From a bacterium (GTDB lineage Bacteria; UBA8248), in NCBI GenBank assembly GCA_965221165.1, contig CBDCRP010000003.1, forward strand, positions 96,001 to 160,000: DNA of 64,000 nt, read 5' to 3'. The notes under the pieces were generated by a model. That model was not told the origin of the DNA and made no database searches. It saw nothing but the letters and a program-made list of their open reading frames with translations. Shown here in pieces: positions 44,094-62,642 of the stretch. Every line of letters starts with the position of its first letter. Position 1 is the first letter of the stretch. Both the position numbers and the translations under genes were made by a program.

Positions 44094-45029
44094 TTACTGA
44101 AAAAAAGGCTGAATAGCGCCCCTGGCGCCCGCCCATTGTCCTAATTCGCCCCCAAATACTTTTGATGAGCGACTCGCCTGCTCGAAAGAATTCTCCTCCC
44201 AGGCTTTCTGGGCGCTCGGGAGGAAATGCTCTTTCGCGTTCATCAGTCCTCCCGCGAGAACGATGCATTCGGGATTCAGCAAGTTCATGATGTTGGCGAT
44301 TCCGACGCCAAGCGCATAGCCGGAATTTTCCCAGATTGATTTCGCCTCATGGTCGCCGGAGCCGGCAAGTTCGGCCAAGGAGAGAGGCGATATCTCATCA
44401 GCCGACGCAACAGCGGAACCTGGATGCCGCGCCGCATAAGCCTTCGCATCTCTTTCCAGGGCCCAGCCCGAGAAGCAGGCCTCCAGGCATCCTCGAGAGC
44501 CGCAAGTGCATGGCTTACCGTTTTTTTCGATTACCATATGGCCGATTTCTCCCGCCATCCCGGATACGCCACCCCAGATCTCTCCATTCTGAATGAAACC
44601 TCCACCGATGCCGGTGCCCAGTGTGATGATGAACATGCTCTCATATCCTACGCCCGCGCCTGCGAAATACTCTCCCAGCGCAGCGGCATTCGCATCGTTC
44701 ATCATATGGATCGGGACAGGGGAGAAGGCATCTTCCAGCATGCCTAAAAGGCGAACCCCGCTTAGAGCGGGCAGGTTGGGGGAGTCAACGATTCTTCCGG
44801 CATCCGAATCCAGAACACCCGCAACGGCGACGCCGACGCCTCTTGGACTTTTATTTGAAGAGAGGGATTTTGCCGCATCCTTGAACAAATCGAGGTAATC
44901 TTCCGCCTTCCGGCACCGTTTTGTATCCAGAGAACAACGTTCTTGCAATTCTCCATCCAGGCCGAAAGACGACGCCTTGAGAAAGGAGCCTCCAAGATCA
45001 AAACCAACATAGACTTCGCTGCCGGGCAA
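44094..45029 (-). CDS. ROK family sugar kinase (glucokinase-like)
   Basis: GFDLGGS, NDANAAALGE, TLGTGIGGG and GEIGH...CTCGSRGCLE. Confidence 0.92.
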   Translation of the reverse strand: MPGSEVYVGFDLGGSFLKASSFGLDGELQERCSLDTKRCRKAEDYLDLFKDAAKSLSSNKSPRGVGVAVAGVLDSDAGRIVDSPNLPALSGVRLLGMLEDAFSPVPIHMMNDANAAALGEYFAGAGVGYESMFIITLGTGIGGGFIQNGEIWGGVSGMAGEIGHMVIEKNGKPCTCGSRGCLEACFSGWALERDAKAYAARHPGSAVASADEISPLSLAELAGSGDHEAKSIWENSGYALGVGIANIMNLLNPECIVLAGGLMNAKEHFLPSAQKAWEENSFEQASRSSKVFGGELGQWAGARGAIQPFFQ

Positions 45030-45121
45030 TGGTCAAAACCTCGGTTCAGTCGAATCGTTTCTTTTTTATCTTCTATCCAAGGGTGTTCCGCAAAGAGAAT
45101 GAAAATCTAAACAGTGCCGTA

Positions 45122-45892
45122 TTATTCGTAGGCCCGATTAGTGGAGTCGATTACCTTGGCGAGGCGGTCATATCCATCATCAGTGGAAACCCTTGAAGCC
45201 CGACCGTTGAATTCGACTTTTGCAAAATAGCTTTCCGCATCCGAAAGGGTGTCGTCCGTGTCTATCATCAATGCAATGCCATCAACTTTCGGGGCCTCGG
45301 AACCAAATACTCTTCGATAATCATCCATCACGTTGCGTTTCTCGGTTATCCATTTATCGAGGTCATCCATGCCGCTTCTGACGACGATATAATGAACCAT
45401 TGGATTCTTCCGGCTTTTGAGAATCGAACCCTCGGGCGCGCTCGTTTCCCAGACATACCCGATCAATTGGCTGTTGATGAAACTGGGAAATCGAGGGAAT
45501 ATGACATAAACACCGGCCGCCTGATCATCGGATTCGCCATTTCGTGCATCCGCGCCTTCGGGGAGTTTCGTCACTTTCCATTTCCATGAGAGAAAAGGAA
45601 ACTTCTTGAGGTCCAGCTTCACTTCCCTATGGATCGAAACGGACGCCTTTTCGCTTCTCATCCGAAGTACTTTCGCGTCCCTGTTTTCCTCCCGAACCAG
45701 TCGAATGTCGGCCTTTCCATGCCATACCTTGAGCGCCCAACCTTTTGGTAACTTACCGGATTTTTGGGGCGTTGGGTTGAAGGTGAAGTCCGTCAGGATG
45801 ACTTTCTTCTTTTGGGCGAGAGCCGGAATTGGACTTTGCAGGGCCACAAAGATCGCCAGCATGGCGAGAATGGCCACATGGACATGCCTCAT
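45122..45892 (-). CDS. DUF3047 domain exported protein
   Basis: Signal peptide, LSWKWKV, DDQAAGVYVIF, YVW, EKRNVMDDY and MIDTDDT. Confidence 0.8.
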   Translation of the reverse strand: MRHVHVAILAMLAIFVALQSPIPALAQKKKVILTDFTFNPTPQKSGKLPKGWALKVWHGKADIRLVREENRDAKVLRMRSEKASVSIHREVKLDLKKFPFLSWKWKVTKLPEGADARNGESDDQAAGVYVIFPRFPSFINSQLIGYVWETSAPEGSILKSRKNPMVHYIVVRSGMDDLDKWITEKRNVMDDYRRVFGSEAPKVDGIALMIDTDDTLSDAESYFAKVEFNGRASRVSTDDGYDRLAKVIDSTNRAYE

Positions 45893-45971
45893 AACACGAT
45901 ATCCTATGGATTTCTCGTCGGTTGGGCGATCCGTGTAGTCACGGGTAACCGATGAGATTCAAAGGCCAATC

Positions 45972-47321
45972 TTAATTCACCAACAAAATCATCAAATCCA
46001 TCACGTTGGTTCCGCTCGGCCCGGTGAATACACACGCGCGCCGTTTGCGGAAAAAATTGTAACTATCATTATTACGCAAAAAAGCGTTCGGGTCAAGTCC
46101 TTGATTTTGGCTCGTTTTTGCGGTTCTTCCGTCGACTATCGCGCCCGCGGCTTCCGTGGGGCCGTCTCTCCCATCGGTGCCCGCGGCGAGAAGACAGACA
46201 TTTTCGCAACCACGAATTTCTATGGCGAAAGAAAGAGCGAGTTCCTGACACCTGCCGCCCAAGCCGTCTCCCAATACTTGCACCGTTGTTTCTCCGCCAT
46301 ACAGCAGGCATTTCGGCGAGTGTATTTTGCGAGAATCGCCCAGAATCCTCTTCGCGTCTTCCGCGATGGATTTACCTGCCTGCCTGGCTTCGCCGCTGAG
46401 TGAAGCGGTTCGCATCTCGACAATGTAACCCTTTGATTTTGCTTTATTATATGCCGCCTGTAGGGCGATCTTGTTGTTCGCTACGACATGGTGGTTCACA
46501 CGTCTGAAAATCTTGTCCCCAGGAGCAGGGGTCTCCGGAATCTCGTGTTTGCAACCAGCCTCTATCCTTTTTCGGATTGTTTCAGGCGCCTCACGGAACA
46601 CGCCATAGCGCCGCAAATACGCTTTTGCCTCAGCGAATGTGGATGAATCGCCGGCAGCAGGACCCGAGCCAATGACGTCAAGGGGATCGCCAATCACATC
46701 AGAAACCAAAAGAACATTCATGCGAGCCGGAAAAACTTTTCTAGCCAAATTCCCGCCCTTTACACCGGATAAATGCTTCCGCACACAATTGAGAGCCTCT
46801 ATGGGAGCGCCTGCTCTTAGCAATGAAGTCGTGACGGATTGTTTGTCCGCAAGAGAAATCCCGGGCGCGGGCGCGGGCATAAGAGCGGAGCCACCGCCAG
46901 AGAGCAGAAATATCACCATATCCTCCTTGCGGGCGGCGGCGGCCCATTTTTCTATTTTTCGGGAGGCTTCCACGCCGGATATATCGGGAACGGGGTGGGC
47001 GGCTTCGAGAATTTCGACATGCCTGCATCTTTCCGCATGGCCATACCGGGTGACGACGACGCCACCCGCAATCCGATGTCCGAGGCGTCGCTCAAGCGCG
47101 CGCGCCATTTGAGAACTTGCTTTTCCCGCCCCCAGAACGATAATTCGCTCCGTTTCGTCGAGGGAAATTCTTTGCTTGCCGCAAACGAGAAACTCCTGTC
47201 CACATTCCTTCTCTATTTCCACATGTCGGCGAACAGCCTCACCGGCATGAACGGCATCGAGCCCGGCCCGGAAAATAGAGCGCGCCTCTCTCTTGAGGGA
47301 TCTTGGGCTCGTCGATTTCAT
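45972..47321 (-). CDS. Glycerate 2-kinase (MOFRL/TtuD family)
   Basis: GAGKA, AAHPVPD, LLSGGGSAL, KGGNLA, GGETTV, GTDGRDGPT and GTNVMD. Confidence 0.92.
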   Translation of the reverse strand: MKSTSPRSLKREARSIFRAGLDAVHAGEAVRRHVEIEKECGQEFLVCGKQRISLDETERIIVLGAGKASSQMARALERRLGHRIAGGVVVTRYGHAERCRHVEILEAAHPVPDISGVEASRKIEKWAAAARKEDMVIFLLSGGGSALMPAPAPGISLADKQSVTTSLLRAGAPIEALNCVRKHLSGVKGGNLARKVFPARMNVLLVSDVIGDPLDVIGSGPAAGDSSTFAEAKAYLRRYGVFREAPETIRKRIEAGCKHEIPETPAPGDKIFRRVNHHVVANNKIALQAAYNKAKSKGYIVEMRTASLSGEARQAGKSIAEDAKRILGDSRKIHSPKCLLYGGETTVQVLGDGLGGRCQELALSFAIEIRGCENVCLLAAGTDGRDGPTEAAGAIVDGRTAKTSQNQGLDPNAFLRNNDSYNFFRKRRACVFTGPSGTNVMDLMILLVN

Positions 47322-47449
47322 ATCGGCGTTTCGTCTCATCGGGAAGCGGGATAAAACATGGCCGGCGCATCGCCCTTTCCGTTCATTCCATGTACTCTTG
47401 ATTCTACATGAATTCAGATGTTCTTTCCTGAAAGAGGAACGAAGGAGAA

Positions 47450-48457
47450 GTGGTGGCAAGCGTCGGAATTATAGCAAACCCGCAATCAGGTAAAGACATC
47501 CGGAGACTGGTGGCGCTGGCAAGTTCTTTCAGCAACAACGAAAAGGTTTTGATGCTTCGCCGCGTGATGGCGGGTCTTGTCGCAATGGGCCTGGACAAGA
47601 TATTGATGTTCAACGATCTCGGCTCTTTAGGCGCCGCCGCAATAGATGGCTTTCAACACGACAACAAAACCTCGAACGCAGAACTCTTTGAAGCGGATGC
47701 CAGGGGAGAAACGGCTGACTCCACCAAAGCGGCTCACAAACTCAACGAACTCGGCGTTCGATGCATTGTTGTTCTGGGAGGCGACGGCACTTGTCGCGCC
47801 GTCGCCAAAGGGTGCGGAAAAACTCCCCTGATCCCCTTGTCAACCGGAACGAACAATGCCTTTCCCTTTTCATGGGAGGGGACCGTGGCCGGCATGGCCG
47901 CGGGTTTGTATGCGCTTCATCCCAGAGTCTATGGAAGCGAGAAAAAAGCGACGAAGCAGCTTCATGTGAACCTGAATGGTGACTCCGAAAGCGCATTGGT
48001 GGATATCGCCATCACCAAGGAATCGTTCTCCGGGGCGCGTGCAATCTGGGATGTAGGGCGAGTGGATTCACTCGCCTTGACGAGGAGTGAACCCGGGCGT
48101 TTGGGACTTTCTTCATTGGGCGCAAGTTTGCGGCCGATCGAACCATGCGAGCCCGTGGGACTGTGGTTGAAGCTCGGAGTGAATAACAAAACCAAACGCC
48201 TTCTCCTCTCTCCTGTGGGACCCGGGCAGGTTGCTTCTGCGCTCGTGGAGGAACACAAGATAGTCAAAGTAGGTGAAAGCATTCACTACCAGGCGCCCGC
48301 AGACAGGGTGCTGGCTTTTGATGGAGAGAGAGAACACGTATTGAGCAAGGGGGAGGACATAGAAATATCGTTGCGACTCGATGGGCCTGCGATATTGAAT
48401 GTTCCCGCCATTTTGAAGAAAGCGGCCATCCGCGGCGATCTGCGAACGAAGAATTGA
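47450..48457 (+). CDS. AcoX-like / ATP-NAD kinase family protein
   Basis: GIIANPQSGKDIRRLVA, LGGDGT, STGTNNAFP and AFDGERE. Confidence 0.85.
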   Translation: MVASVGIIANPQSGKDIRRLVALASSFSNNEKVLMLRRVMAGLVAMGLDKILMFNDLGSLGAAAIDGFQHDNKTSNAELFEADARGETADSTKAAHKLNELGVRCIVVLGGDGTCRAVAKGCGKTPLIPLSTGTNNAFPFSWEGTVAGMAAGLYALHPRVYGSEKKATKQLHVNLNGDSESALVDIAITKESFSGARAIWDVGRVDSLALTRSEPGRLGLSSLGASLRPIEPCEPVGLWLKLGVNNKTKRLLLSPVGPGQVASALVEEHKIVKVGESIHYQAPADRVLAFDGEREHVLSKGEDIEISLRLDGPAILNVPAILKKAAIRGDLRTKN

Positions 48458-48511: not shown

Positions 48512-48540
48512 TTGACAAAAAAGGGCCAAGTGATTATCTT
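48512..48540 (+). promoter_or_regulatory. sigma70 promoter
   Basis: TTGACA-N17-TATCTT. Confidence 0.75.
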
Positions 48541-48543
48541 AAC

Positions 48544-48570
48544 GTGGCACTCAGCATCGTCGAGTGCCAA
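48544..48570 (+). promoter_or_regulatory. CIRCE element (HrcA operator)
   Basis: GTGGCACTC-N9-GAGTGCCAA versus the consensus TTAGCACTC-N9-GAGTGCTAA. It begins 3 bp after the -10 box, the canonical position. Confidence 0.82.
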
Positions 48571-48580
48571 GGTATTGATA
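48568..48580 (-). promoter_or_regulatory. IHF consensus site overlapping the CIRCE right arm
   Basis: Reverse strand TATCAATACCTTG matches WATCAANNNNTTR exactly. Confidence 0.5.
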
Positions 48581-48731
48581 AATAATGAATTTAACTGTTT
48601 ATCCCGTTCATCCCTGAAGTTCTCGGGATGTTTTTAAACACACAACGCCTCGGTCAACTTGATAGTTCAGGAGAGAAGAACGGCTTGGACGCCAGCGAAC
48701 AATTCGCATAGATTTTTTAAGGAGTTCTAAG

Positions 48732-49697
48732 TTGATACGAGTTGAAAACCTCACAAAATACTATGGCAATCTTCGGGGAGTGAAGGATATATCCTTCCGG
48801 GTCGAAGAGGGAGAGGTGCTGGGATTCCTCGGCCCCAACGGCGCCGGCAAATCCACGACCATGCGCATTTTGACGGGTTACATGCCGCCCAGTTCCGGCT
48901 CGGCCTGGGTGGCAAACATCAATGTTTCAGAATCGCCACTGGAAGCGCAGAAGAATTTGGGGTACCTCCCGGAAAATAACCCGCTGTACGGAGATATGAC
49001 TGCAAGAGCTTATTTGAATTTCGTAGCGTCCATGAAAGGCATGAGCGGTGCGGAGAAAGAAGCCGGCATCCAAAGGGTAATCGGCAGTTGCGGGCTTGAG
49101 GATGTCGCCAACCGCCTCATCGGCAATCTCTCGAAAGGATATCGCCAACGCGTCGGTTTGGCGCAAGCAATGGTGAACGACCCGCCTGTGCTGATTCTCG
49201 ATGAGCCCACTTCAGGTCTCGACCCGGCGCAGATCGTGGAAATCCGGAATTTGATTTCAGAACTCAAGGGCAATCGCACCCTCATCCTGAGCACACACAT
49301 TTTGCCCGAAGTGAATATGGTCTGTGACCGTGTCGTCATTATCCATCACGGCGTGGTAGCGGCCGAGGGTGCGCTCGATACGCTGGCGGCGAGCGCACAG
49401 GCGGATTCGACCATACGCGTTTCGGCAATCGGAGGCGTTGGAACTTTATCCGACAAAATGAAAACGGTATCGGGTGTTGAGCGCGTAGAACTGCTCGGCA
49501 CATCAACGGGAGAAGAGGCGCATTTCGAGGTGCACGCAAAAGGCGGCGATGACATTCGCTCCGATCTGGCCGCCGCCGTATACGCGGCGGAAGGAAAACT
49601 CACTGAAATTCGGCAGGTAAGGCTAACGCTGGAAGACCTTTTCGTTCGTATCGTCAGCGGGGAGCAAAAACACGATGAGGAAACTGTAAATGCGTAA
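48732..49697 (+). CDS. ABC-2 ATP-binding protein, GldA-like
   Basis: GPNGAGKST, GYLPENNPLY, LSKGYRQRVG, LDEPTSGLDP and STHILPEV. Confidence 0.92.
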   Translation: MIRVENLTKYYGNLRGVKDISFRVEEGEVLGFLGPNGAGKSTTMRILTGYMPPSSGSAWVANINVSESPLEAQKNLGYLPENNPLYGDMTARAYLNFVASMKGMSGAEKEAGIQRVIGSCGLEDVANRLIGNLSKGYRQRVGLAQAMVNDPPVLILDEPTSGLDPAQIVEIRNLISELKGNRTLILSTHILPEVNMVCDRVVIIHHGVVAAEGALDTLAASAQADSTIRVSAIGGVGTLSDKMKTVSGVERVELLGTSTGEEAHFEVHAKGGDDIRSDLAAAVYAAEGKLTEIRQVRLTLEDLFVRIVSGEQKHDEETVNA

Positions 49698-50466
49698 CAC
49701 TTTTTGGATATGCCGGCGAGAACTCGCCTCGTTTTTCTTCTCGCCCATCGCGTACGTGATCCTCGCGGCATGGACGGTACTGACGGGCATATTCTATTCC
49801 GGCGCATTTCTCACCTATGCCGCCGTTTCCATGCAGTTGGCCAGAAACCCCCAAGCCGCAGCGCAATACAACATCACGCCAACTTCGTCCGTTCTTGAGC
49901 CGGTATTCTCCAGCGTCACCGTCATCCTCTTGTTCGTCGCGCCATTGCTGACGATGCGTCTGTTCAGCGAAGAGAAAAAGCAGGGCACGATGGAGTTGAT
50001 GCTCACTTTTCCGCTGCGCAACGGGCAAATGTTTGCCGGCAAATACCTTTCCGTTTTATCTATCTACCTGGTCATGCTGGCAATTACTCTCGTCTATCCG
50101 ATCATCCTGAGCGCTTTCGTCAAAGTGGAGTGGACCATCGTCTCCTCCGCCTATCTCGGAATACTATTGACGGGCATGGCGTTCCTTTCCGTTGGCCTTT
50201 TGGCCAGTTCCTGGACGTCGAATCAAATCGTCGCGGCCATGGTTGCCTTTATGGTGCTTCTCGCGACTTTCCTCATGGATTTTCTCGCGGCATCGGCCAG
50301 TGCCCCTGTGGCCTCGATTCTCAGGCATCTTTCATTCGGAATGCACTTGCGAAATTCCATCCGGGGCATCATCGATACGCGCGACATCATCTATCTCGTC
50401 AACATCAACATATTATGTGGTTTTCTGGTGCTCAGATCTCTTGAATACTACAGGTGGAGAGGGTAG
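49690..50466 (+). CDS. ABC-2 permease, GldF-like
   Basis: RELASFFFSPIAY, PLLTMRLFSEEKKQGTMEL, SNQIVA and GIIDTRD. Confidence 0.9.
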   Translation: MRNTFWICRRELASFFFSPIAYVILAAWTVLTGIFYSGAFLTYAAVSMQLARNPQAAAQYNITPTSSVLEPVFSSVTVILLFVAPLLTMRLFSEEKKQGTMELMLTFPLRNGQMFAGKYLSVLSIYLVMLAITLVYPIILSAFVKVEWTIVSSAYLGILLTGMAFLSVGLLASSWTSNQIVAAMVAFMVLLATFLMDFLAASASAPVASILRHLSFGMHLRNSIRGIIDTRDIIYLVNINILCGFLVLRSLEYYRWRG

Positions 50467-50470
50467 GGAC

Positions 50471-52159
50471 TTGGAAAACAGAAATCTGTACTTGTTCATC
50501 GCCTCCGCCGCCTTATTGCTGATTGGCATCTCCGGCTGGGCCGGTCATGATCAATTCTCCGCCCCTCCGAAATGGGCTTACGCCACCATTGCCCTGGGGA
50601 TAGTTTGCTTTGTGTATACGGCATGGATTTCGCGGCGCGAACTTCAAGGCGGCATGCGGCTCCGATCCACGCGAACGGGTATACAAGTCGTCCTGATGGT
50701 CATCGTGGTGACAGCCATTTTGGTGGTCGTTGAACTCGTGAGCGTGAAACACTTCAAGCGTTGGGACATCACTCCAGGAAATTTCTTCAGCCTGTCCGCG
50801 AAAACCACAAATCTGTTAAGCAAACTCGATAGAGAAAAAAGGCGGATCGAGATCATCACTTTTGCCCGCAAGCTGGAACAACCTGCGGTAACGGAAATTT
50901 TGGAACAATATACCCGGGCATCGAAACAAGTCACTTTCCGCTTCCTGGACCTGGACGCCTCTCCACGAACAGCACGAAAATATGATGTAGACGCCTATGG
51001 CACATTGGTCGTGATTCATCATTTCAATAAAAAAGAAATCGAGAAACAGAACAAACCGAATTCCGCGGACAAAGAGAAGAAAAAGACGTTCCGCTCGGAG
51101 AAGATATTCAATCTTTCAGAAAACGCGATCGCCAATGCGATACTGAAAACCATTCAAACCGAACAAAAACACGTATATTATCTCACGGGCCATGGGGAGC
51201 GGCTTTTCTCCGGTCAAGGACGTGAGGTGATGAAGACGCTCGCCATCGGCATGAGGGATGACAACTACCAGGTGGATGAGCTTCTTTTGTTGAGAAAAAA
51301 AGGCGTACCTGAAAATACCAGCATGTTGATTATCGCGGCGCCCCAAAAAGAGCTGGAAGAAGTTGAAATCAAGTATATCGATGCTTACATCAAATCCGGC
51401 GGAAAGCTTCTTGTTTTCCTGGAACCTGAAACGAAATCGGAACGCCTGACCGCGCTCCTGGAAAGATATGGTTTCAAACTCCCTCCATCTTTTGTCATCG
51501 ATCCCGAATCGGTGCGCTTCGCCCTGGCGGGTGGAAATATAGTCACCCCGTTTGCGGTGAACTATGGGTTGCACGACATCACCAAGCAATTAAAGGGCTT
51601 GGCCACTGTATTCCCGACCGCAAGACATGTGTCCGCTACGAGCATGCCCAAGGCGGGACTGCACTCCGAGGATTTGGTGAAAACGGGAGCGGGAAGTTAT
51701 ACCGTCGAGAGCGTAACCCTCCAGAACGGTGAACTCTCCTTCGATCCCAAGACCCAAAAAGAAGGGCCCGTCCCGATTGGGGCTGCCGTCACCGTCACCC
51801 TGGATCTCTACAAACTCGCCCAGGGGCAGGGGTCTCAAGACGACGCGAAAACACCCGCGGCCGGGAAGAAAAATGAAAAGAACAACGAGGCCCGAATCGT
51901 CGTTTTCGGTGATGCTGATTTTGCGAGTGATGCTTTCATCGGCGCACAAGGCAATGCGAATCTCGCCTACAACACCGTAAACTGGCTCGGCGGCGAGAAA
52001 GACCTGATCACCATCCGCCCCAAAAGCCGTACGGGCGAACCCCTCGTATTGGCCGGGGGTGAGGGCAGGTTCGTTCACTTGTTCACCGTCTGGATGATGC
52101 CCTTGTTCATCATTCTCATCGGAGCCGCCGTCTACGTCCGGAGAAGGCAACTGCGGTGA
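50471..52159 (+). CDS. GldG-like ABC auxiliary component (GIFT/ABC_transp_aux domain)
   Basis: N-terminal TM helices, RWDIT..FSLS, YYLTGHGE, IIAAP, RIVVFGDADF, NWL and a C-terminal TM. TTG start at 50471. Confidence 0.88.
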   Translation: MENRNLYLFIASAALLLIGISGWAGHDQFSAPPKWAYATIALGIVCFVYTAWISRRELQGGMRLRSTRTGIQVVLMVIVVTAILVVVELVSVKHFKRWDITPGNFFSLSAKTTNLLSKLDREKRRIEIITFARKLEQPAVTEILEQYTRASKQVTFRFLDLDASPRTARKYDVDAYGTLVVIHHFNKKEIEKQNKPNSADKEKKKTFRSEKIFNLSENAIANAILKTIQTEQKHVYYLTGHGERLFSGQGREVMKTLAIGMRDDNYQVDELLLLRKKGVPENTSMLIIAAPQKELEEVEIKYIDAYIKSGGKLLVFLEPETKSERLTALLERYGFKLPPSFVIDPESVRFALAGGNIVTPFAVNYGLHDITKQLKGLATVFPTARHVSATSMPKAGLHSEDLVKTGAGSYTVESVTLQNGELSFDPKTQKEGPVPIGAAVTVTLDLYKLAQGQGSQDDAKTPAAGKKNEKNNEARIVVFGDADFASDAFIGAQGNANLAYNTVNWLGGEKDLITIRPKSRTGEPLVLAGGEGRFVHLFTVWMMPLFIILIGAAVYVRRRQLR

Positions 52160-54018
52160 ACCCCAAGAAAAATCTCCTATTGCTTCTCGTTTTGGTGGTC
52201 ATTGGTGGCGCATATTACGTCTACGACGTGAAATGGGCCGCCGAGAAACGTACCGCCGAGGAACAAAAGGTCAAACTCCTCAAGGGGATTGACGAGAAGG
52301 CGCTGATACGCATCGACGTATCGAAAGAAGATGAACCCTACCAGATCATCCGAACGGAGAAAGGGTGGCGCTTCGTCAAACCCGTCGACGCCGCCGTTGA
52401 TGCGGATGAGGTCGAGAAGCTCCTCGAAGCAGCGGCGAAACTCCGGGAGCGCCGGCGAATCGGAAGCGTAAAAGACAAATCGGAATTCGGAATGGACGAG
52501 CCCAGGATGAAAATCACATTCGGGCTGAAGGACAAGGACGATGTTTCCGTCGAGATCGGGGACAGAACCCCCACACGTGAATTTCGATATGCCGCGCTGG
52601 CGAAAAGCCCCGGAATTTTCACCCTCCAGCTTTCCGACATTGCCAAGTTTGATAAAACGGTATTCAGCATTCGGGACAGGTCGATCGTTCCCATTTTGCC
52701 CGAGCGCGCCCAAAAGGTGGTTGTCGAACCTCAGGATGGTGGTGGCTTCACGGTTGTTCGAAAGAGCAAAGATGAATGGGCGCTGGCGAAACCCATCGAG
52801 GACAGGGCCGACTCCATTGATTCCGAGGGCATCGTATCTACCCTGAAATGGGACAAGGTACAGAAATTCGTTGATGAAAATCCCAAGAATCTCGTACCCT
52901 ATGGTCTGGATAAACCCAAAATTACGGTGCGCATCTTCACGGAAGAGAAAGAAAAACACGAAGACGGGGTTATCCTGGGCAACAAAAAGGTGGAAGCGCC
53001 CGGACCGAAAAGCCCCCAGAAGAAACCAAAGGTTTATTATTACGCCAGGAGGCTCTCCGGCGGCCCCGTCATGCTCATCAATGAGAAAACATTCCAGGAG
53101 CTGCCCAAATCCGTATTCTCCTTGAGGCACAAGACCGTCATCGATTATGACGTCGACCACATCACCCGCCTTCTGGTTGAATCGAAATCCCAAAAACTCG
53201 ACATCGTCCGAAAGGCGAAGAAAAAATGGGACCTACGCCTCGCTGCGGCGGATGGAAAACAAAAAAATCTCACCGGCCGACACAAGCACGTGGATGACCT
53301 TTTGTGGGACATCAAGTGGAGCAATTCCATAGAATATGTGGACGCCCCCGGGGATGACCTCTCCAAATACGCCCTGGGGCGTGAAGACGGCAAGGGCGCG
53401 CCGCTTCATTACACCCTCTGGCTTAAAAAGAAAGAAGACGGGCCGCTGGAGAAAAAAGCGTTCATCATCGGGCGGTTTCTGAAGGAGAAGAAGAGGGCGT
53501 ACGGCCAAATTGAAGGGGAAAAACGCCTGTTCGCCATCAAGAAGGAAGATTATGACAAGATTACGAAAACGCCCTATTTCCTGAGTGAGCGGCGTTTGCT
53601 CCTCTACGGGAAAGACGGTGAAATCACGGAAGTTACGGCGCGATTTCCCGATAAATCCTCCATGACGGCTGAGCGCTTCGGCGAAGGGTGGCGCTTCCTC
53701 TCTCCCGAGGGGAAAGAGGCCGAACCCGGCAACGTGAATGACCTCGTAGGCGCTCTCAGGGATTTCGAGAGAGAAGGGGAGGCGGAACCGGGTGAAGCGC
53801 CAGATTTCAAAGACTTTATCGTCGAACTCTCGGGCAGGGATATCCGCCACGCGAAATGGGGGCCGTTTCTGTTTGCCGGCAAGACGGGTTCCGAGTTCCT
53901 TTATGTGAGAGAAGGCGATAAAACCTACCGCATCAAGAAGAAATACAATGAGGATAAGCTCCCTAAAGAATTGAAAGATTGGGAGAAAGAAAAAAAGAAA
54001 GAAGACGGCGCCGCATAG
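52156..54018 (+). CDS. DUF4340 repeat protein (membrane-anchored periplasmic, ~3 repeats)
   Basis: N-terminal TM and repeated W..xxP....AD / YGLDKP / LR motifs. Typical fourth gene of GldAFG-like operons. Confidence 0.8.
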   Translation: MNPKKNLLLLLVLVVIGGAYYVYDVKWAAEKRTAEEQKVKLLKGIDEKALIRIDVSKEDEPYQIIRTEKGWRFVKPVDAAVDADEVEKLLEAAAKLRERRRIGSVKDKSEFGMDEPRMKITFGLKDKDDVSVEIGDRTPTREFRYAALAKSPGIFTLQLSDIAKFDKTVFSIRDRSIVPILPERAQKVVVEPQDGGGFTVVRKSKDEWALAKPIEDRADSIDSEGIVSTLKWDKVQKFVDENPKNLVPYGLDKPKITVRIFTEEKEKHEDGVILGNKKVEAPGPKSPQKKPKVYYYARRLSGGPVMLINEKTFQELPKSVFSLRHKTVIDYDVDHITRLLVESKSQKLDIVRKAKKKWDLRLAAADGKQKNLTGRHKHVDDLLWDIKWSNSIEYVDAPGDDLSKYALGREDGKGAPLHYTLWLKKKEDGPLEKKAFIIGRFLKEKKRAYGQIEGEKRLFAIKKEDYDKITKTPYFLSERRLLLYGKDGEITEVTARFPDKSSMTAERFGEGWRFLSPEGKEAEPGNVNDLVGALRDFEREGEAEPGEAPDFKDFIVELSGRDIRHAKWGPFLFAGKTGSEFLYVREGDKTYRIKKKYNEDKLPKELKDWEKEKKKEDGAA

Positions 54019-57197: not shown

Positions 57198-57274
<77 letters not shown>

Positions 57275-58191: not shown

Positions 58192-58671
58192 CTAAAGAAG
58201 CGGGCTGCGGCGCGTCGTGATGACGCCGGTTCTCATGCCCGCCGTATGCAAGCCGCCCCTCAGGCGGCCGTGTTCAATCTTCATGCACCTGTCCATGACG
58301 ACGAGAAGACCCTCGTCTCTCGCCCGGCGAGCTTCCGCCTCGTTCACCACGCCGAATTGCAGCCAGATGGATTTGGCGCCGACCGCCATCGCCTCGTCCA
58401 CCACTTCTGAAATTTCATCCGGCCTGCGAAACACGTCCACCACGTCGGGAGGCTCGGGTATCGATTCAACGTCGGGGTAGGATTTTTGGCCCAGTATCCG
58501 TTCGTATCTGGGGTTCACGGGAATCACCTCGAAGCCCATTCTTTGCAGGTAATAACCCACGAAGTAGCTGGGTCTCGATTCATTCGCCGAGAGACCCACC
58601 ATTGCCACGCGGCGATGATTTCGCAGGATATGACGAATCGTGTGCGGGTTTTGATACGCGGGAAAATCCAT
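58192..58671 (-). CDS. CoA-binding protein (YccU-like)
   Basis: VAMVGLS, RPS, IPVNP, VDVFR, WLQFG and VMDRC. Overlaps the metY stop codon. Confidence 0.9.
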   Translation of the reverse strand: MDFPAYQNPHTIRHILRNHRRVAMVGLSANESRPSYFVGYYLQRMGFEVIPVNPRYERILGQKSYPDVESIPEPPDVVDVFRRPDEISEVVDEAMAVGAKSIWLQFGVVNEAEARRARDEGLLVVMDRCMKIEHGRLRGGLHTAGMRTGVITTRRSPLL

Positions 58672-59990
58672 CACTTGCTCCTCGTCGCTGCATCGAGCGC
58701 CTGATCCAGGTCCCACAGAATATCGTCTATATGTTCGAGGCCCACCGATATCCGGATGAGGTCGGGCGTGACGTTTCCCGCCTTCATGTCCTCCTCGCTC
58801 AACTGGGCGTGCGTCGTGGAAGCCGGATGGATGATGAGGCTTTTGGCATCGCCGACGTTCGCCAGATGACTGTGCAGTTGAAGAGCGTTGATGAAGTGAA
58901 CGGCGGCCTCGAATCCGCCCCGGACGCCGAAGGAAAAAACGGCGCCCCGTCCATTCGACAGATATTTTTGCGCCTTCGCGTACTCGGGACTATCCGGCAG
59001 TCCGGGATGGCTCACGAAACTGATGCGTGCATCCTGTGCGAGATACTCGGCCACCCTCTGCGCGTTCTCGCAGTGGCGACCCATCCGCAGGCTCAGGGTT
59101 TCCAGCCCCTGAAGAAACAAAAAAGCGTTGAAGGGACTCGGACACGGACCGATGTCGCGCAGGCTCTCCGCACGCGCCTTCATCAGGAAACCGTACTCGC
59201 CGAAGGTCTCGAAAAACCGCATACCGTGATAGCCCGGCGAGGGATCGACCATGCCCGGAAATTTTCCGTTCGCCCAGTTGAAGCGCCCCGAATCCACGAT
59301 GACGCCGCCGATGCTCGTACCGTGCCCGCCGATGAATTTGGTGGTCGAATGCAGGACGATGTCCGCCCCCCACTCGATGGGGCGGCAAAGGCAGGGGGTG
59401 GCGAAGGTGTTGTCCACCACGAGGGGCACGCCCGCCTCGTTCGCGATTTTAGCCAGCACTTCCAAATCGGCGACGTTCGTGCGCGGGTTCCCTATCGTCT
59501 CGCAGTAGATGGCGCGCGTTTTATCCGTGACGGCGGCCGCGAAATTATCGCTCTTAGCCGGATCGACGAAGACCGTTTCGATACCGAGTTTTCTCAGCGT
59601 GATGTCGAACTGCGTGTAGGTGCCCCCGTAGAGGGTGGCGGCCGATACGATTTCATCCCCCGGCGCCATCAGGGTGAACAGCGCGATGAACTGCGCGGCC
59701 TGGCCCGAGGCCGTCGCCAGCGCGCCGGCGCCTCCCTCCAGAGTGGCGATGCGCTCCTCGAAGGCGCTCGTCGTGGGATTTCCGATGCGCGAGTAGATGT
59801 AGCCATAATCCTGCAGTGAGAATAGACCCGCCGCATGTTCGTCGTCGTCGAAGACGAAAGAGGAGGATTGATAGATCGGAACCGCCCGCGCCCCGGTGGT
59901 GGCGTCGGGCCGCGCGCCCGCATGGAGGGCGTTCGTATCGAAATGAAACTCTCGCGCGGCTGTTTCCTCGGGCGTGGAATTCTCGTTCAT
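58671..59990 (-). CDS. metY: O-acetylhomoserine aminocarboxypropyltransferase / sulfhydrylase
   Basis: [33 protein letters not shown] and [19 protein letters not shown]. Confidence 0.93.
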
Positions 59991-60179
59991 GCGCACTCCT
60001 CGAAACCCTAAAGTCCAAGTTTGTAATCCTTGAACCCTACAATAGCAAGCGATGCGCCCAAATAGAAGCCTCCTCCACCGGGGCGAAAATATCCGGAGGC
60101 GTTGATTTTATGCCCCCGACTGCACCATAATCGCTGTTCGTGATGACGCGCTCGCCCCGCAACCTGCACGTAAAGGTCC

Positions 60180-60935
60180 ATGGCTCGAATACTTCTTTGC
60201 AATGATGACGGCATCGACTCTGAAGGGTTGCGCGCCCTGTACGCGGCCCTTGCCCCGCTGGGGGAGTTGGTAGTCGTGGCGCCGGACAGGGAGCAGAGCG
60301 CGGCGGGACACTCCTTGAGCCTGCACCGGCCCCTGCGCATCAAGGAGTTGGAAAAAAACTGGTTCGCCGTGGACGGCACCCCCACAGACTGCGTCAACCT
60401 CGCCTTAAACGGCCTGATGAAAAACGAGCGCCCCGACATTCTCGTCTCCGGCATCAACCGGGGCGGAAACATGGGGGACGACATCACTTATTCGGGAACC
60501 GTGGCCGCCGCGATGGAAGCCACGCTCCTGGGGCTTCCGGCGGTGGCGATCTCTCTCGCCCATGAAGACGGGGAGACGCTCCTTTATGAACTGGCGGAAA
60601 AAGTTGCGCGCGCCGGTGCGAGGGAAGTATTATCCCGGGGACTGACGCCGGGCGTTCTGCTGAACATCAACGTCCCGAACATTTCCCCGCAAGAGTGCCG
60701 GGGAGAGAGAATCACCCGCCAGGGCAAGCGCATTTACGAGGAAGCCGTCGTGGAGAAGATCGACCCGCGCGGGCGCGAGTATTACTGGATAGGGGGAGGC
60801 AGCCTCCGGTGGGAGAAGGAACCCGACACCGACTTCGAGGCCGTCGCCGCGAAGGAGGTTTCCATCACGCCCCTGAGGCTCGACCTGACGGATTATGACG
60901 CGATGAAAGGGCTGGAATCTTGGCGATTTCATTAA
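60180..60935 (+). CDS. surE: 5'/3'-nucleotidase SurE
   Basis: NDDG, GTPTDCV, SGINRG and YSGTVAAA. Confidence 0.96.
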   Translation: MARILLCNDDGIDSEGLRALYAALAPLGELVVVAPDREQSAAGHSLSLHRPLRIKELEKNWFAVDGTPTDCVNLALNGLMKNERPDILVSGINRGGNMGDDITYSGTVAAAMEATLLGLPAVAISLAHEDGETLLYELAEKVARAGAREVLSRGLTPGVLLNINVPNISPQECRGERITRQGKRIYEEAVVEKIDPRGREYYWIGGGSLRWEKEPDTDFEAVAAKEVSITPLRLDLTDYDAMKGLESWRFH

Positions 60936-61600
60936 ACGGAAGACAGGAGAATCGCTGGCGGCACGCGCGCGAGGAGATGGTGGACAAGCAGATCATCGCC
61001 AGGGGCATTTCGGACGCCCGCGTGCTCGAGGTCCTGCGCGAGGTGCCGAGGCATCATTTCGCGCCCGATATATTTCAGGAAGCCGCCTATGCCGACAAGG
61101 CGCTGCCCATCGGACACGGGCAAACGATTTCCCAGCCCTATATGGCGGCCGCCGCACTCGAGGCCCTGGAACTCAGGGGCGGGGAGAAAGTGCTTGAGAT
61201 CGGAGCGGGTTCGGGTTACCTTACGGCGCTTCTCGGGAAGCTCGCCGGCTCCGTCCGCGCGATTGAAAGGGTGCCCGAGTTGTCGGTGCAAGCCAGGGAG
61301 CGGCTTGATTCTTTCGGCCTGACGAATTATATGCTCTGGACGGCGGACGGCACCTACGGCTGGCCGGAAGAAGCGCCCTTCGACGCCATCGTCAGCGCGG
61401 CGTCCGCACCTCGCGTTCCGGCGCCGTGGATGGAGCAACTCGCTCCCGGCGGCCGCATCGTCATGCCCTTGGGAGATGGGGAGAAGCAAACCCTCGTGCG
61501 ATTCCGCGCCACCAAGACGGGCGAAATGCTCGCACCCGAGGAGTTGATGAACTGCGTTTTTGTGAAATTGGTGGGAAAATACGGATGGGAGACACCATAA
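60920..61600 (+). CDS. pcm: Protein-L-isoaspartate O-methyltransferase
   Basis: [17 protein letters not shown] and APFDAI; conserved surE-pcm order. Confidence 0.95.
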
Positions 61601-61636: not shown

Positions 61637-61713
61637 CGGGGCGTAGCGCAGCCTGGTAGCGCGCCTGCTTCGGGAGCAGGAGGCCGGAGGTTCAAATCCT
61701 CTCGCCCCGACCA
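61637..61713 (+). tRNA. tRNA-Pro(CGG)
   Basis: CGGGGCGTAGCGCAGCCTGGTAGCGCG-CCTGC-TTCGGGA-GCAGG...GGTTCAAATCC...CGCCCCGACCA. Confidence 0.95.

Positions 61714-62075: not shown

Positions 62076-62642
<567 letters not shown>

Follow-up and report, generated by a model that had tools for sequence, protein, structure and literature searches.

In a 64,000-nt stretch of a bacterial contig (CBDCRP010000003.1 of assembly GCA_965221165.1, positions 96,001 to 160,000; GTDB lineage UBA8248), hereafter referred to as the window, we analyzed a four-gene operon that encodes a GldA/GldF/GldG-like ATP-binding cassette (ABC) system together with a DUF4340 protein. The operon is preceded by a sigma-70 promoter and an inverted repeat of the type known as the controlling inverted repeat of chaperone expression (CIRCE), at which the repressor HrcA acts. 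We consider it probable (roughly 70%) that this repeat is a working CIRCE operator through which HrcA controls the four-gene envelope operon, that the operon is induced by stress, and that its products act as one complex. Control of the operon by HrcA and CIRCE, as predicted from the sequence, is well supported by comparative evidence and limited to part of the Nitrospinota.

Promoter and operator, and their conservation in related loci

The promoter and the repeat read, base for base, as described in a first-pass annotation of this DNA: TTGACA-N17-TATCTT and then, after a gap of 3 nt (AAC), the inverted repeat (Table 1). The promoter (48512-48540) is near-consensus, with a score of 10/12 in a consensus scan, and its -10 hexamer reads TATTTT in most close relatives. 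The repeat has a perfect core, inverted 9-bp arms, and a 9-nt spacer (AGCATCGTC), which are the features of a CIRCE operator, and it is placed as an operator would be, just 3' of the promoter of the downstream operon. Compared with TTAGCACTC-N9-GAGTGCTAA, it has three mismatches, none of them inside the GCACTC/GAGTGC core. Table 8 of PMC545781 gives the same G/C arm variant for the groESL operator of Desulfovibrio vulgaris (cTgGCACTC-N9-GAGTGCcAA). At ≤3 mismatches, the repeat is the single match to CIRCE in the 64 kb (0.01 expected; one match arose in 1 of 100 shuffles), and the perfect core likewise occurs once (0.13 expected). The first-pass annotation also saw an exact consensus site for integration host factor (IHF) overlapping the repeat. 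This match exists, on the minus strand at 48568-48580, where it overlaps the right CIRCE arm and takes the TTR part of its motif from the CAA of that arm, but it is weaker than was stated. The window has five occurrences of the motif where 1.65 would be expected, a count that 6 of 100 shuffles also attained, and because the motif is so frequent and holds so little information, the match says little by itself.

Table 1. Coordinates of features in the window (positions count from its first nucleotide).
Feature	Position	Strand	Remarks
-35 hexamer TTGACA	48512-48517	+	Read from sequence and promoter scan; mean pairwise identity 1.00, invariant in 21/21
-10 hexamer TATCTT	48535-48540	+	17-nt spacer after -35; mean pairwise identity 0.87
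CIRCE-type operator GTGGCACTC-N9-GAGTGCCAA	48544-48570		Over predicted transcription start
AT-rich conserved block GGTATTGATAAATAA...	48571-48590	+	Directly 3' of operator; identity 0.79; includes IHF-like match
Remainder of 5' leader	48591-48731	+	Hairpin and T-run, conserved blocks, ribosome-binding site
Hairpin plus T-run	48609-48635	+	In leader
Conserved leader block GTCAACTTGATA	48653-48664	+	From aligned relatives
Conserved leader block AACGGCTTGGA	48679-48689	+	From aligned relatives
Ribosome-binding site AAGGAG	48719-48724	+	Upstream of TTG start of ABC ATPase
ABC ATPase, GldA-like	48732-49697	+	TTG start; Pfam ABC_tran
ABC-2 permease, GldF-like	49690-50466	+	Pfam ABC2_membrane families
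GldG-like auxiliary membrane protein, 562 aa	50471-52159	+	PF09822, DUF7088, weak IFT52 GIFT match
Membrane-anchored DUF4340 protein, 620 aa	52156-54018	+	PF14238, three stretches
tRNA gene	57201-57274	-	Rfam
tRNA gene	61637-61710	+	Rfam

Related loci were collected by a genome search with an alignment of close relatives of the DUF4340 protein, since an alignment that included distant DUF4340 proteins had too little conserved stretch. The protein has 55 database relatives, which are named as Nitrospinae/Nitrospinota, "Tectomicrobia," or one Deltaproteobacteria (27% identity), or are listed as unclassified "bacterium." The search yielded 38 loci, all from Nitrospinota-type genomes. Because five of them (L022, L026, L027, L034, and L038) end before the region upstream of the operon, 33 loci can be assessed. 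The first-pass annotation had named absence of CIRCE upstream of orthologous operons as one of the observations that would speak against its reading; instead, 20 of these 33 Nitrospinota loci (20/38 overall) have a CIRCE in the corresponding position at ≤4 mismatches. Each positive locus has one CIRCE, always intergenic and 148-197 nt before the ABC start codon. The core is perfect in 15 of the 20, the relatives range from one to four mismatches, and ten loci differ from the universal CIRCE consensus by no more than one mismatch. Against these 20 hits in 618,687 nt, shuffling the loci in blocks left 1.55 hits on average (20 shuffles). On these counts, the repeat in the window is not a chance match. 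Loci L020 and L035 show the same promoter-plus-CIRCE layout as the window.

Conservation is uneven across this region. When the window is aligned with the 20 relatives closest to it (21 sequences; values are mean pairwise identities), the left arm reaches 0.83 and the right arm 0.95. The 9-nt spacer between them is at 0.41, and the intergenic DNA that precedes the promoter is at 0.53. Conserved arms around a freely varying spacer are the mark of a protein-binding operator under selection and do not suit an RNA hairpin. Purifying selection thus acts on the operator across a Nitrospinota clade. Furthermore, the third arm position has an A opposite a C, and so is unpaired, in 12 of the 21 sequences, and covariation between the arms does not rise above that in shuffles, which argues for half-site recognition by a protein rather than for a hairpin.

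HrcA represses at CIRCE, depends on GroEL, and is relieved when non-native proteins accumulate, according to the account in PMC3842655. According to PMC545781, HrcA regulons elsewhere consist essentially of chaperones, and groESL is their only constant member. A published reconstruction (PMC10203281) places hrcA in the Nitrospinota ancestor, and its supplementary file 8 lists gene cluster GC_00000562 as hrcA (K03705). This supports the presence of HrcA in the phylum, not in the source organism of the window. The searched supplements of two other Nitrospinota genome papers contained no occurrence of hrcA, and the literature search on Nitrospina found no paper combining the genus with hrcA. Among the larger open reading frames (ORFs) of the window, a Pfam scan covering the 64 kb found no hrcA, groESL, dnaK, or other chaperone gene.

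The first-pass annotation had raised linkage of such operons with chaperone genes, and one locus shows such adjacency. Among the relatives, L037 is the most divergent; there, an entire groEL gene (Pfam Cpn60, 19-1763) adjoins the operon, ending 110 nt before the ABC gene, and no chaperone gene was found in the other related loci. With only 18 nt of contig ahead of groEL in L037, groES and a possible CIRCE lie beyond its end. Between groEL and the ABC gene lie some 21 consecutive G and a long G/C-rich inverted repeat or hairpin, which may be real or an assembly artefact.

Two observations from other phyla point weakly in the same direction as the regulation proposed here. In 4/4 strains of Leptospira borgpetersenii (PMC9679693, Table 1), the level of an ABC_transp_aux protein at 37 °C exceeds that at 29 °C by 0.21-0.86 abundance-score units on a scale not stated there; GroEL, DnaK, and HSP90 rise too. 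In Synechococcus PCC 7002, a DUF4340 gene is listed as induced, like clpB and hspA, at very high CO2 (PMC12789804); a search of that paper for hrcA and CIRCE gave no occurrence.

Operon products and their possible role

By analogy with established HrcA systems, we infer the following sequence of events. The operator would span the start point of a strong sigma-70 promoter, giving a transcript that consists of a 161-nt leader and the four genes. In unstressed cells, HrcA assisted by GroEL would bind the operator and repress the operon. Misfolded proteins would then titrate GroEL, HrcA would lose its activity, and the operon would be induced alongside the chaperones. Its products would form one inner-membrane complex, with a GldA-like ATPase dimer and a GldF-like permease driving a large periplasmic assembly of the GldG-like and DUF4340 proteins, and this complex would carry out a task in envelope maintenance that cells need during heat or proteotoxic stress.

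The genes themselves are arranged as the first-pass annotation described them, as four tightly coupled ORFs for an ATPase, a GldF-like permease, a GldG/GIFT-domain protein, and a protein with three DUF4340 stretches. The ATPase and permease genes overlap by 8 nt, the GldG-like gene starts 4 nt past the permease stop (placed at TTG 50471, after a GGAGAGGG motif), and the GldG-like and DUF4340 genes overlap by 4 nt. In every related locus that spans them, the four genes stand in this same order. The best NCBIfam matches are GldA for the ATPase (309 bits, cut-off 402.6), GldF for the permease (129 bits, cut-off 288.5), and GldG for the auxiliary protein (72.7 bits, cut-off 389.85). Because these scores are far below the equivalog cut-offs, the description "Gld-like" fits, but membership in the Bacteroidota gliding system does not. 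This is in line with the first-pass statement that no genes for gliding or the type IX secretion system (T9SS) lie nearby: the Pfam scan of the 58 ORFs of the window found no Gld, Spr, or Por family. The fourth protein scores 164 bits with PF14238, well above the cut-off of 25.

Comparisons with solved structures are informative mainly for the ATPase. Its nearest solved relatives are the lipid exporters ABCA1, ABCA4, ABCA3, and ABCA7 (E about 1e-66), and it also resembles a Thermotoga ABC protein and NosF (E 7e-41). For the permease, no similarity to a solved PDB chain was detected, and the GldG-like protein has no solved relative by sequence; its AlphaFold2 model (mean predicted local distance difference test score, pLDDT, 51.7) is too poor for a fold search. 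The AlphaFold2 model of the DUF4340 protein (pLDDT 87.3) consists of an N-terminal helix followed by a string of repeated beta-rich domains. Against the PDB, this model gave only weak matches to PCNA/DnaN clamps (best E 1.4e-5, template modeling score 0.13 or lower), none of them informative, and a structure-atlas search with one DUF4340 repeat returned unnamed clusters (best score 0.85) and no lead.

Complex modeling, which the first-pass annotation had proposed, favors contact between the two periplasmic partners, though weakly. The GldG-like protein and residues 1-330 of the DUF4340 protein score 0.45 as a pair, compared with 0.02 for the best control; the three runs share at least 52% of contacts, and the partner pLDDT is at least 78. 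In calibration, 116 of 157 solved complexes passed the mark, as did 2 of 215 mismatched pairs, but scores at 0.60 or under include only 18 of the 157 solved complexes and both of the passing mismatches, so passes in this range, such as the present one, are unreliable. Altogether, the coupling of the genes makes it likely that the four proteins form one machine, and the modeling lends this weak backing.

What such a machine would do is a separate matter. The first-pass annotation read it as a periplasmic protein quality-control machine, that is, a chaperone, extractor, or exporter of damaged envelope proteins. Predicted membership in the misfolding regulon, the adjacent groEL in L037, and the large periplasmic assembly are all consistent with this, but none of the domains of the operon is known to handle proteins, and the nearest solved ATPases either move lipids (the ABCA proteins) or drive NosD (NosF). 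The GldG domain, in turn, is related to the IFT52 and OST48 domains, which are linked to sugars. Moreover, since HrcA regulons elsewhere consist essentially of chaperones (PMC545781), the regulon reveals the inducing signal, not the substrate. We thus regard a quality-control machine as unlikely. Because the nearest solved ATPases are ABCA proteins and NosF, a lipid or glycan exporter or a mechanotransducer fits at least as well, and we rank lipid or glycan export or extraction, or a NosDFY-like mechanotransducer, above the handling of damaged proteins. There is only a small chance that the GldAFG-like and DUF4340 system is a true class I heat-shock effector, an inner-membrane machine run on ATP, with a periplasmic GldG/DUF4340 arm that removes, refolds, or exports damaged envelope proteins. 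If it were, the HrcA regulon would extend from cytoplasmic chaperones to the envelope, and the orphan ABC family would have its first function.

To our knowledge, no GldG-type ABC system with a DUF4340 partner has a known substrate. Such systems occur across phyla, including Nitrospinota, Bradyrhizobium, SAR11 (PMC13712998), and Verrucomicrobium (PMC12283558). The conserved HrcA operator points to the signal that may switch this one on, namely the accumulation of misfolded protein, which would be a first regulatory clue to a widespread system and makes an orphan transporter a testable component of the stress response. We file the operon as a putative new target of a known regulatory system (HrcA/CIRCE); it would be one of the rare conserved targets, outside the chaperones, of the best-conserved heat-shock operator in bacteria. 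In the parts of the literature on HrcA regulons, DUF4340, GldG, and Nitrospina that were covered, we found no report linking CIRCE to an ABC operon, and PMC1664576, from the GldG literature, gave nothing relevant to a heat-shock link.

Limits of the link and alternative explanations

Several observations weigh against HrcA control of the operon or narrow its reach. CIRCE was not found in 9 of the 33 assessable loci (L024, L025, L028, L030, L031, L032, L033, L036, and L037), has decayed in three (L012, L015, and L029, the last of which retains the promoter), and is changed in one (L008). Because the site is absent, altered, or decayed in 13 of 33 loci, operator control appears to be dispensable in many relatives. 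Outside the phylum, neither of two distant plasmid-borne GldG-type operons (Bradyrhizobium and Subdoligranulum) has CIRCE upstream, in a very small test of a plasmid collection where GldG-like gave two records and DUF4340 none. The site of the window itself, with its three mismatches, departs further from consensus than that of most relatives. The groEL of L037 shows adjacency only, not co-transcription, because the spacer holds the long G/C hairpin. Finally, the leader hairpin with its T-run (48609-48635) could stop some transcripts before the ABC gene.

These points set the scope of two first-pass claims. Placement of the operon in the protein-misfolding regulon is supported where CIRCE is conserved (20/33 loci, arms kept) and is in keeping with groEL in L037, but it is not supported as a generality, given the 13 loci without an intact site. 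Similarly, the idea that CIRCE might be found upstream of such operons across phyla is supported in part of the Nitrospinota loci and not as a cross-phylum rule, with 0/2 for the plasmid operons in that very small sample.

For comparison with the distribution of CIRCE, a maximum-likelihood tree was quickly built from the concatenated sequences of the four proteins (32 rows, with L037 as the root; L016, L021, and L035 removed by a coverage filter). L026 was marked on it as lacking CIRCE, but its contig does not reach the upstream region. Within the clade of the window (the window plus 20 loci), 17 loci retain the site, L008 is altered, and L012 and L015 are decayed. Outside this clade, L020, L021, and L035 have a CIRCE with one or two core mismatches among 13 assessable loci. 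The window clade and the L020/L029 pair are separated in the tree by a CIRCE-free clade of low-GC Nitrospinaceae. The simplest account is that CIRCE was gained early and afterwards lost more than once, as judged from a tree in which the rooting and the long branches are uncertain. The CIRCE-free lineages showed no comparable inverted repeat that might serve as a replacement operator.

Two side observations concern individual loci. In the low-GC Nitrospinaceae L028, L030, L031, and L033, the intergenic region is compact (~110 nt) and carries a TTGCAA-N17-TATTTT promoter and no operator, as though stress control had been lost from streamlined genomes. In L008 (6228-6511), the arms have changed symmetrically to GCGCTC/GAGCGC around a 10-nt spacer, and its sister L013 is changed in the left arm only; the changes in L008 could reflect co-evolution with the repressor or a step towards loss.

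Could the promoter and CIRCE be a relic, left over from a chaperone operon such as groESL that once lay upstream and no longer of use in regulation? The groEL that directly precedes the operon in L037, the locus set as outgroup, is what such a history would leave, as are the decayed sites of L012, L015, and L029 and the nine loci that lack the site. Neutral decay, however, would be even, yet the arms are far better kept than the spacer in the 21 aligned sequences, and the -35 hexamer is invariant. In addition, an origin as a leftover is compatible with a site that works today. We therefore give little credence to a relic without present function.

About as improbable, in our view, is that the promoter and CIRCE mainly drive a short leader transcript, a small RNA or attenuated leader ending at 48609-48635, with the ABC gene reached by read-through or transcribed from elsewhere. 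Terminator-like hairpins were called at 48613-48627 and 48695-48707, and the leader is conserved among aligned relatives (identity 0.69) with near-invariant blocks, both of which speak for such a transcript. The stems are only 5-6 bp, though, and the leader folds no better than shuffles (z-score -0.78), shows no covariation exceeding shuffles in the 21 aligned sequences, and matches no Rfam family at E up to 10, apart from one chance 14-bit match. The only other promoter-like match between the operator and the ABC gene begins at its start codon (48732-48759) and is hence intragenic. Small leader ORFs are not kept in frame in relatives.

Some features of the leader are recorded here in their own right. 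Several of its blocks rival the operator in conservation: ATTGATAAATAA right after CIRCE, the 6-bp hairpin with T-run, GTCAACTTGATA, and AACGGCTTGGA. Within the block at 48571-48590, TTGA is invariant in 21/21 aligned sequences. Leader peptides of 27 and 23 aa were considered and rejected, as their frames are not kept in relatives, and an RNA hairpin reading of the leader and of the repeat was likewise rejected on the fold z-score and the shuffle-level covariation.

Least probable of all is that the palindrome only resembles CIRCE and is instead the site of another regulator, a sigma-54 element, or an RNA or DNA hairpin: the window copy does contain TGGCAC, and L008 and L020 show symmetric changes in both arms, but twelve relatives have the left arm TTAGCACTC (ten exactly, two with C first) and so lack TGGCAC, ten loci come within one mismatch of the CIRCE consensus, and a sigma-54 element was rejected on reading the sequence by eye, since no GC dinucleotide stands at the proper spacing on either strand. 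A working CIRCE operator under HrcA thus remains our preferred reading of the repeat.

Gene neighborhood and comparison with known systems

The gene upstream of the operon is NAD-kinase/lipid-kinase-like in the loci that span it, with the exception of L037, where it is groEL. In the window, this gene closes a block (44094-48457) of genes for a ROK kinase, a DUF3047 protein, a glycerate-kinase-like protein (DUF4147/MOFRL), and the NAD-kinase/diacylglycerol-kinase-like protein. The block is syntenic in L024, L029, L031, and L036, except that pyruvate kinase takes the place of the glycerate-kinase-like gene in L024 and that DUF3047 is not among the matches listed for L029. The weak "putative lipid kinase" match of the kinase-like neighbor is a possible hint at a lipid-related role. 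Downstream, the DUF4340 gene is followed in the window by a convergent amidase gene. A convergent DinB_2 gene lies downstream in L024, L029, and L031, and L036 has a malate/L-lactate dehydrogenase gene instead.

Farther downstream in the window (60180-61600), surE is followed by a gene for protein-L-isoaspartate O-methyltransferase, a protein repair enzyme, and in L031 these two genes also stand near the operon. A 184-aa ORF (62076-62630) matches only the start of a family of Cys/Met pyridoxal phosphate (PLP) enzymes, of which a full-length member is encoded at 58671-59996; the ORF may be a gene fragment. An Rfam scan of the entire window found nothing beyond the two tRNA genes of Table 1.

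Compared with the HrcA/CIRCE class I regulon (groESL and hrcA-grpE-dnaKJ, as in Bacillus subtilis, Geobacter, and Desulfovibrio), the operon described here has the same 9-bp inverted repeat with 9-nt spacer and the same operator placement at a sigma-70 promoter, and we assume that the repression logic carries over. It differs in that a membrane ABC system, not a chaperone, is under control, and in that the link is confined to part of one phylum.

Three of the four proteins find their best NCBIfam match in GldA, GldF, and GldG of the Flavobacterium gliding-motility ABC transporter (TIGR03522, TIGR03518, and TIGR03521), and both systems combine an ATPase, an ABC-2 permease, and a GldG-type auxiliary protein, which here (as a PF09822 protein) shares one operon with the other two. 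Here, however, the scores fall below the cut-offs, a fourth gene encoding DUF4340 is added, the phylum is different, and gliding/T9SS families were not found by Pfam among the ORFs of the 64 kb window. Plasmid p195_1 of Bradyrhizobium has the same order of ABC ATPase, permease, Gldg family protein, and DUF4340 protein. Its DUF4340 gene is 528 nt long, in contrast to the three stretches in 620 aa here, and no CIRCE precedes the operon there. In SAR11, the DUF4340 protein of OG1814 is predicted to be an ABC subunit or part of an ABC complex, as described in PMC13712998, and a DUF4340 domain is reported as essential in Verrucomicrobium (PMC12283558).

The last comparison is with NosDFY (PDB 7o0y and related entries), from which the present system differs in having no NosD-like beta-helix, no nos genes, and a permease without a PDB match. 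We take NosDFY as a model for an ATP-driven periplasmic machine that does not necessarily carry a solute across the membrane. The two systems share a NosF-like ATPase (7e-41) and an ABC-2 type architecture with a large periplasmic partner.

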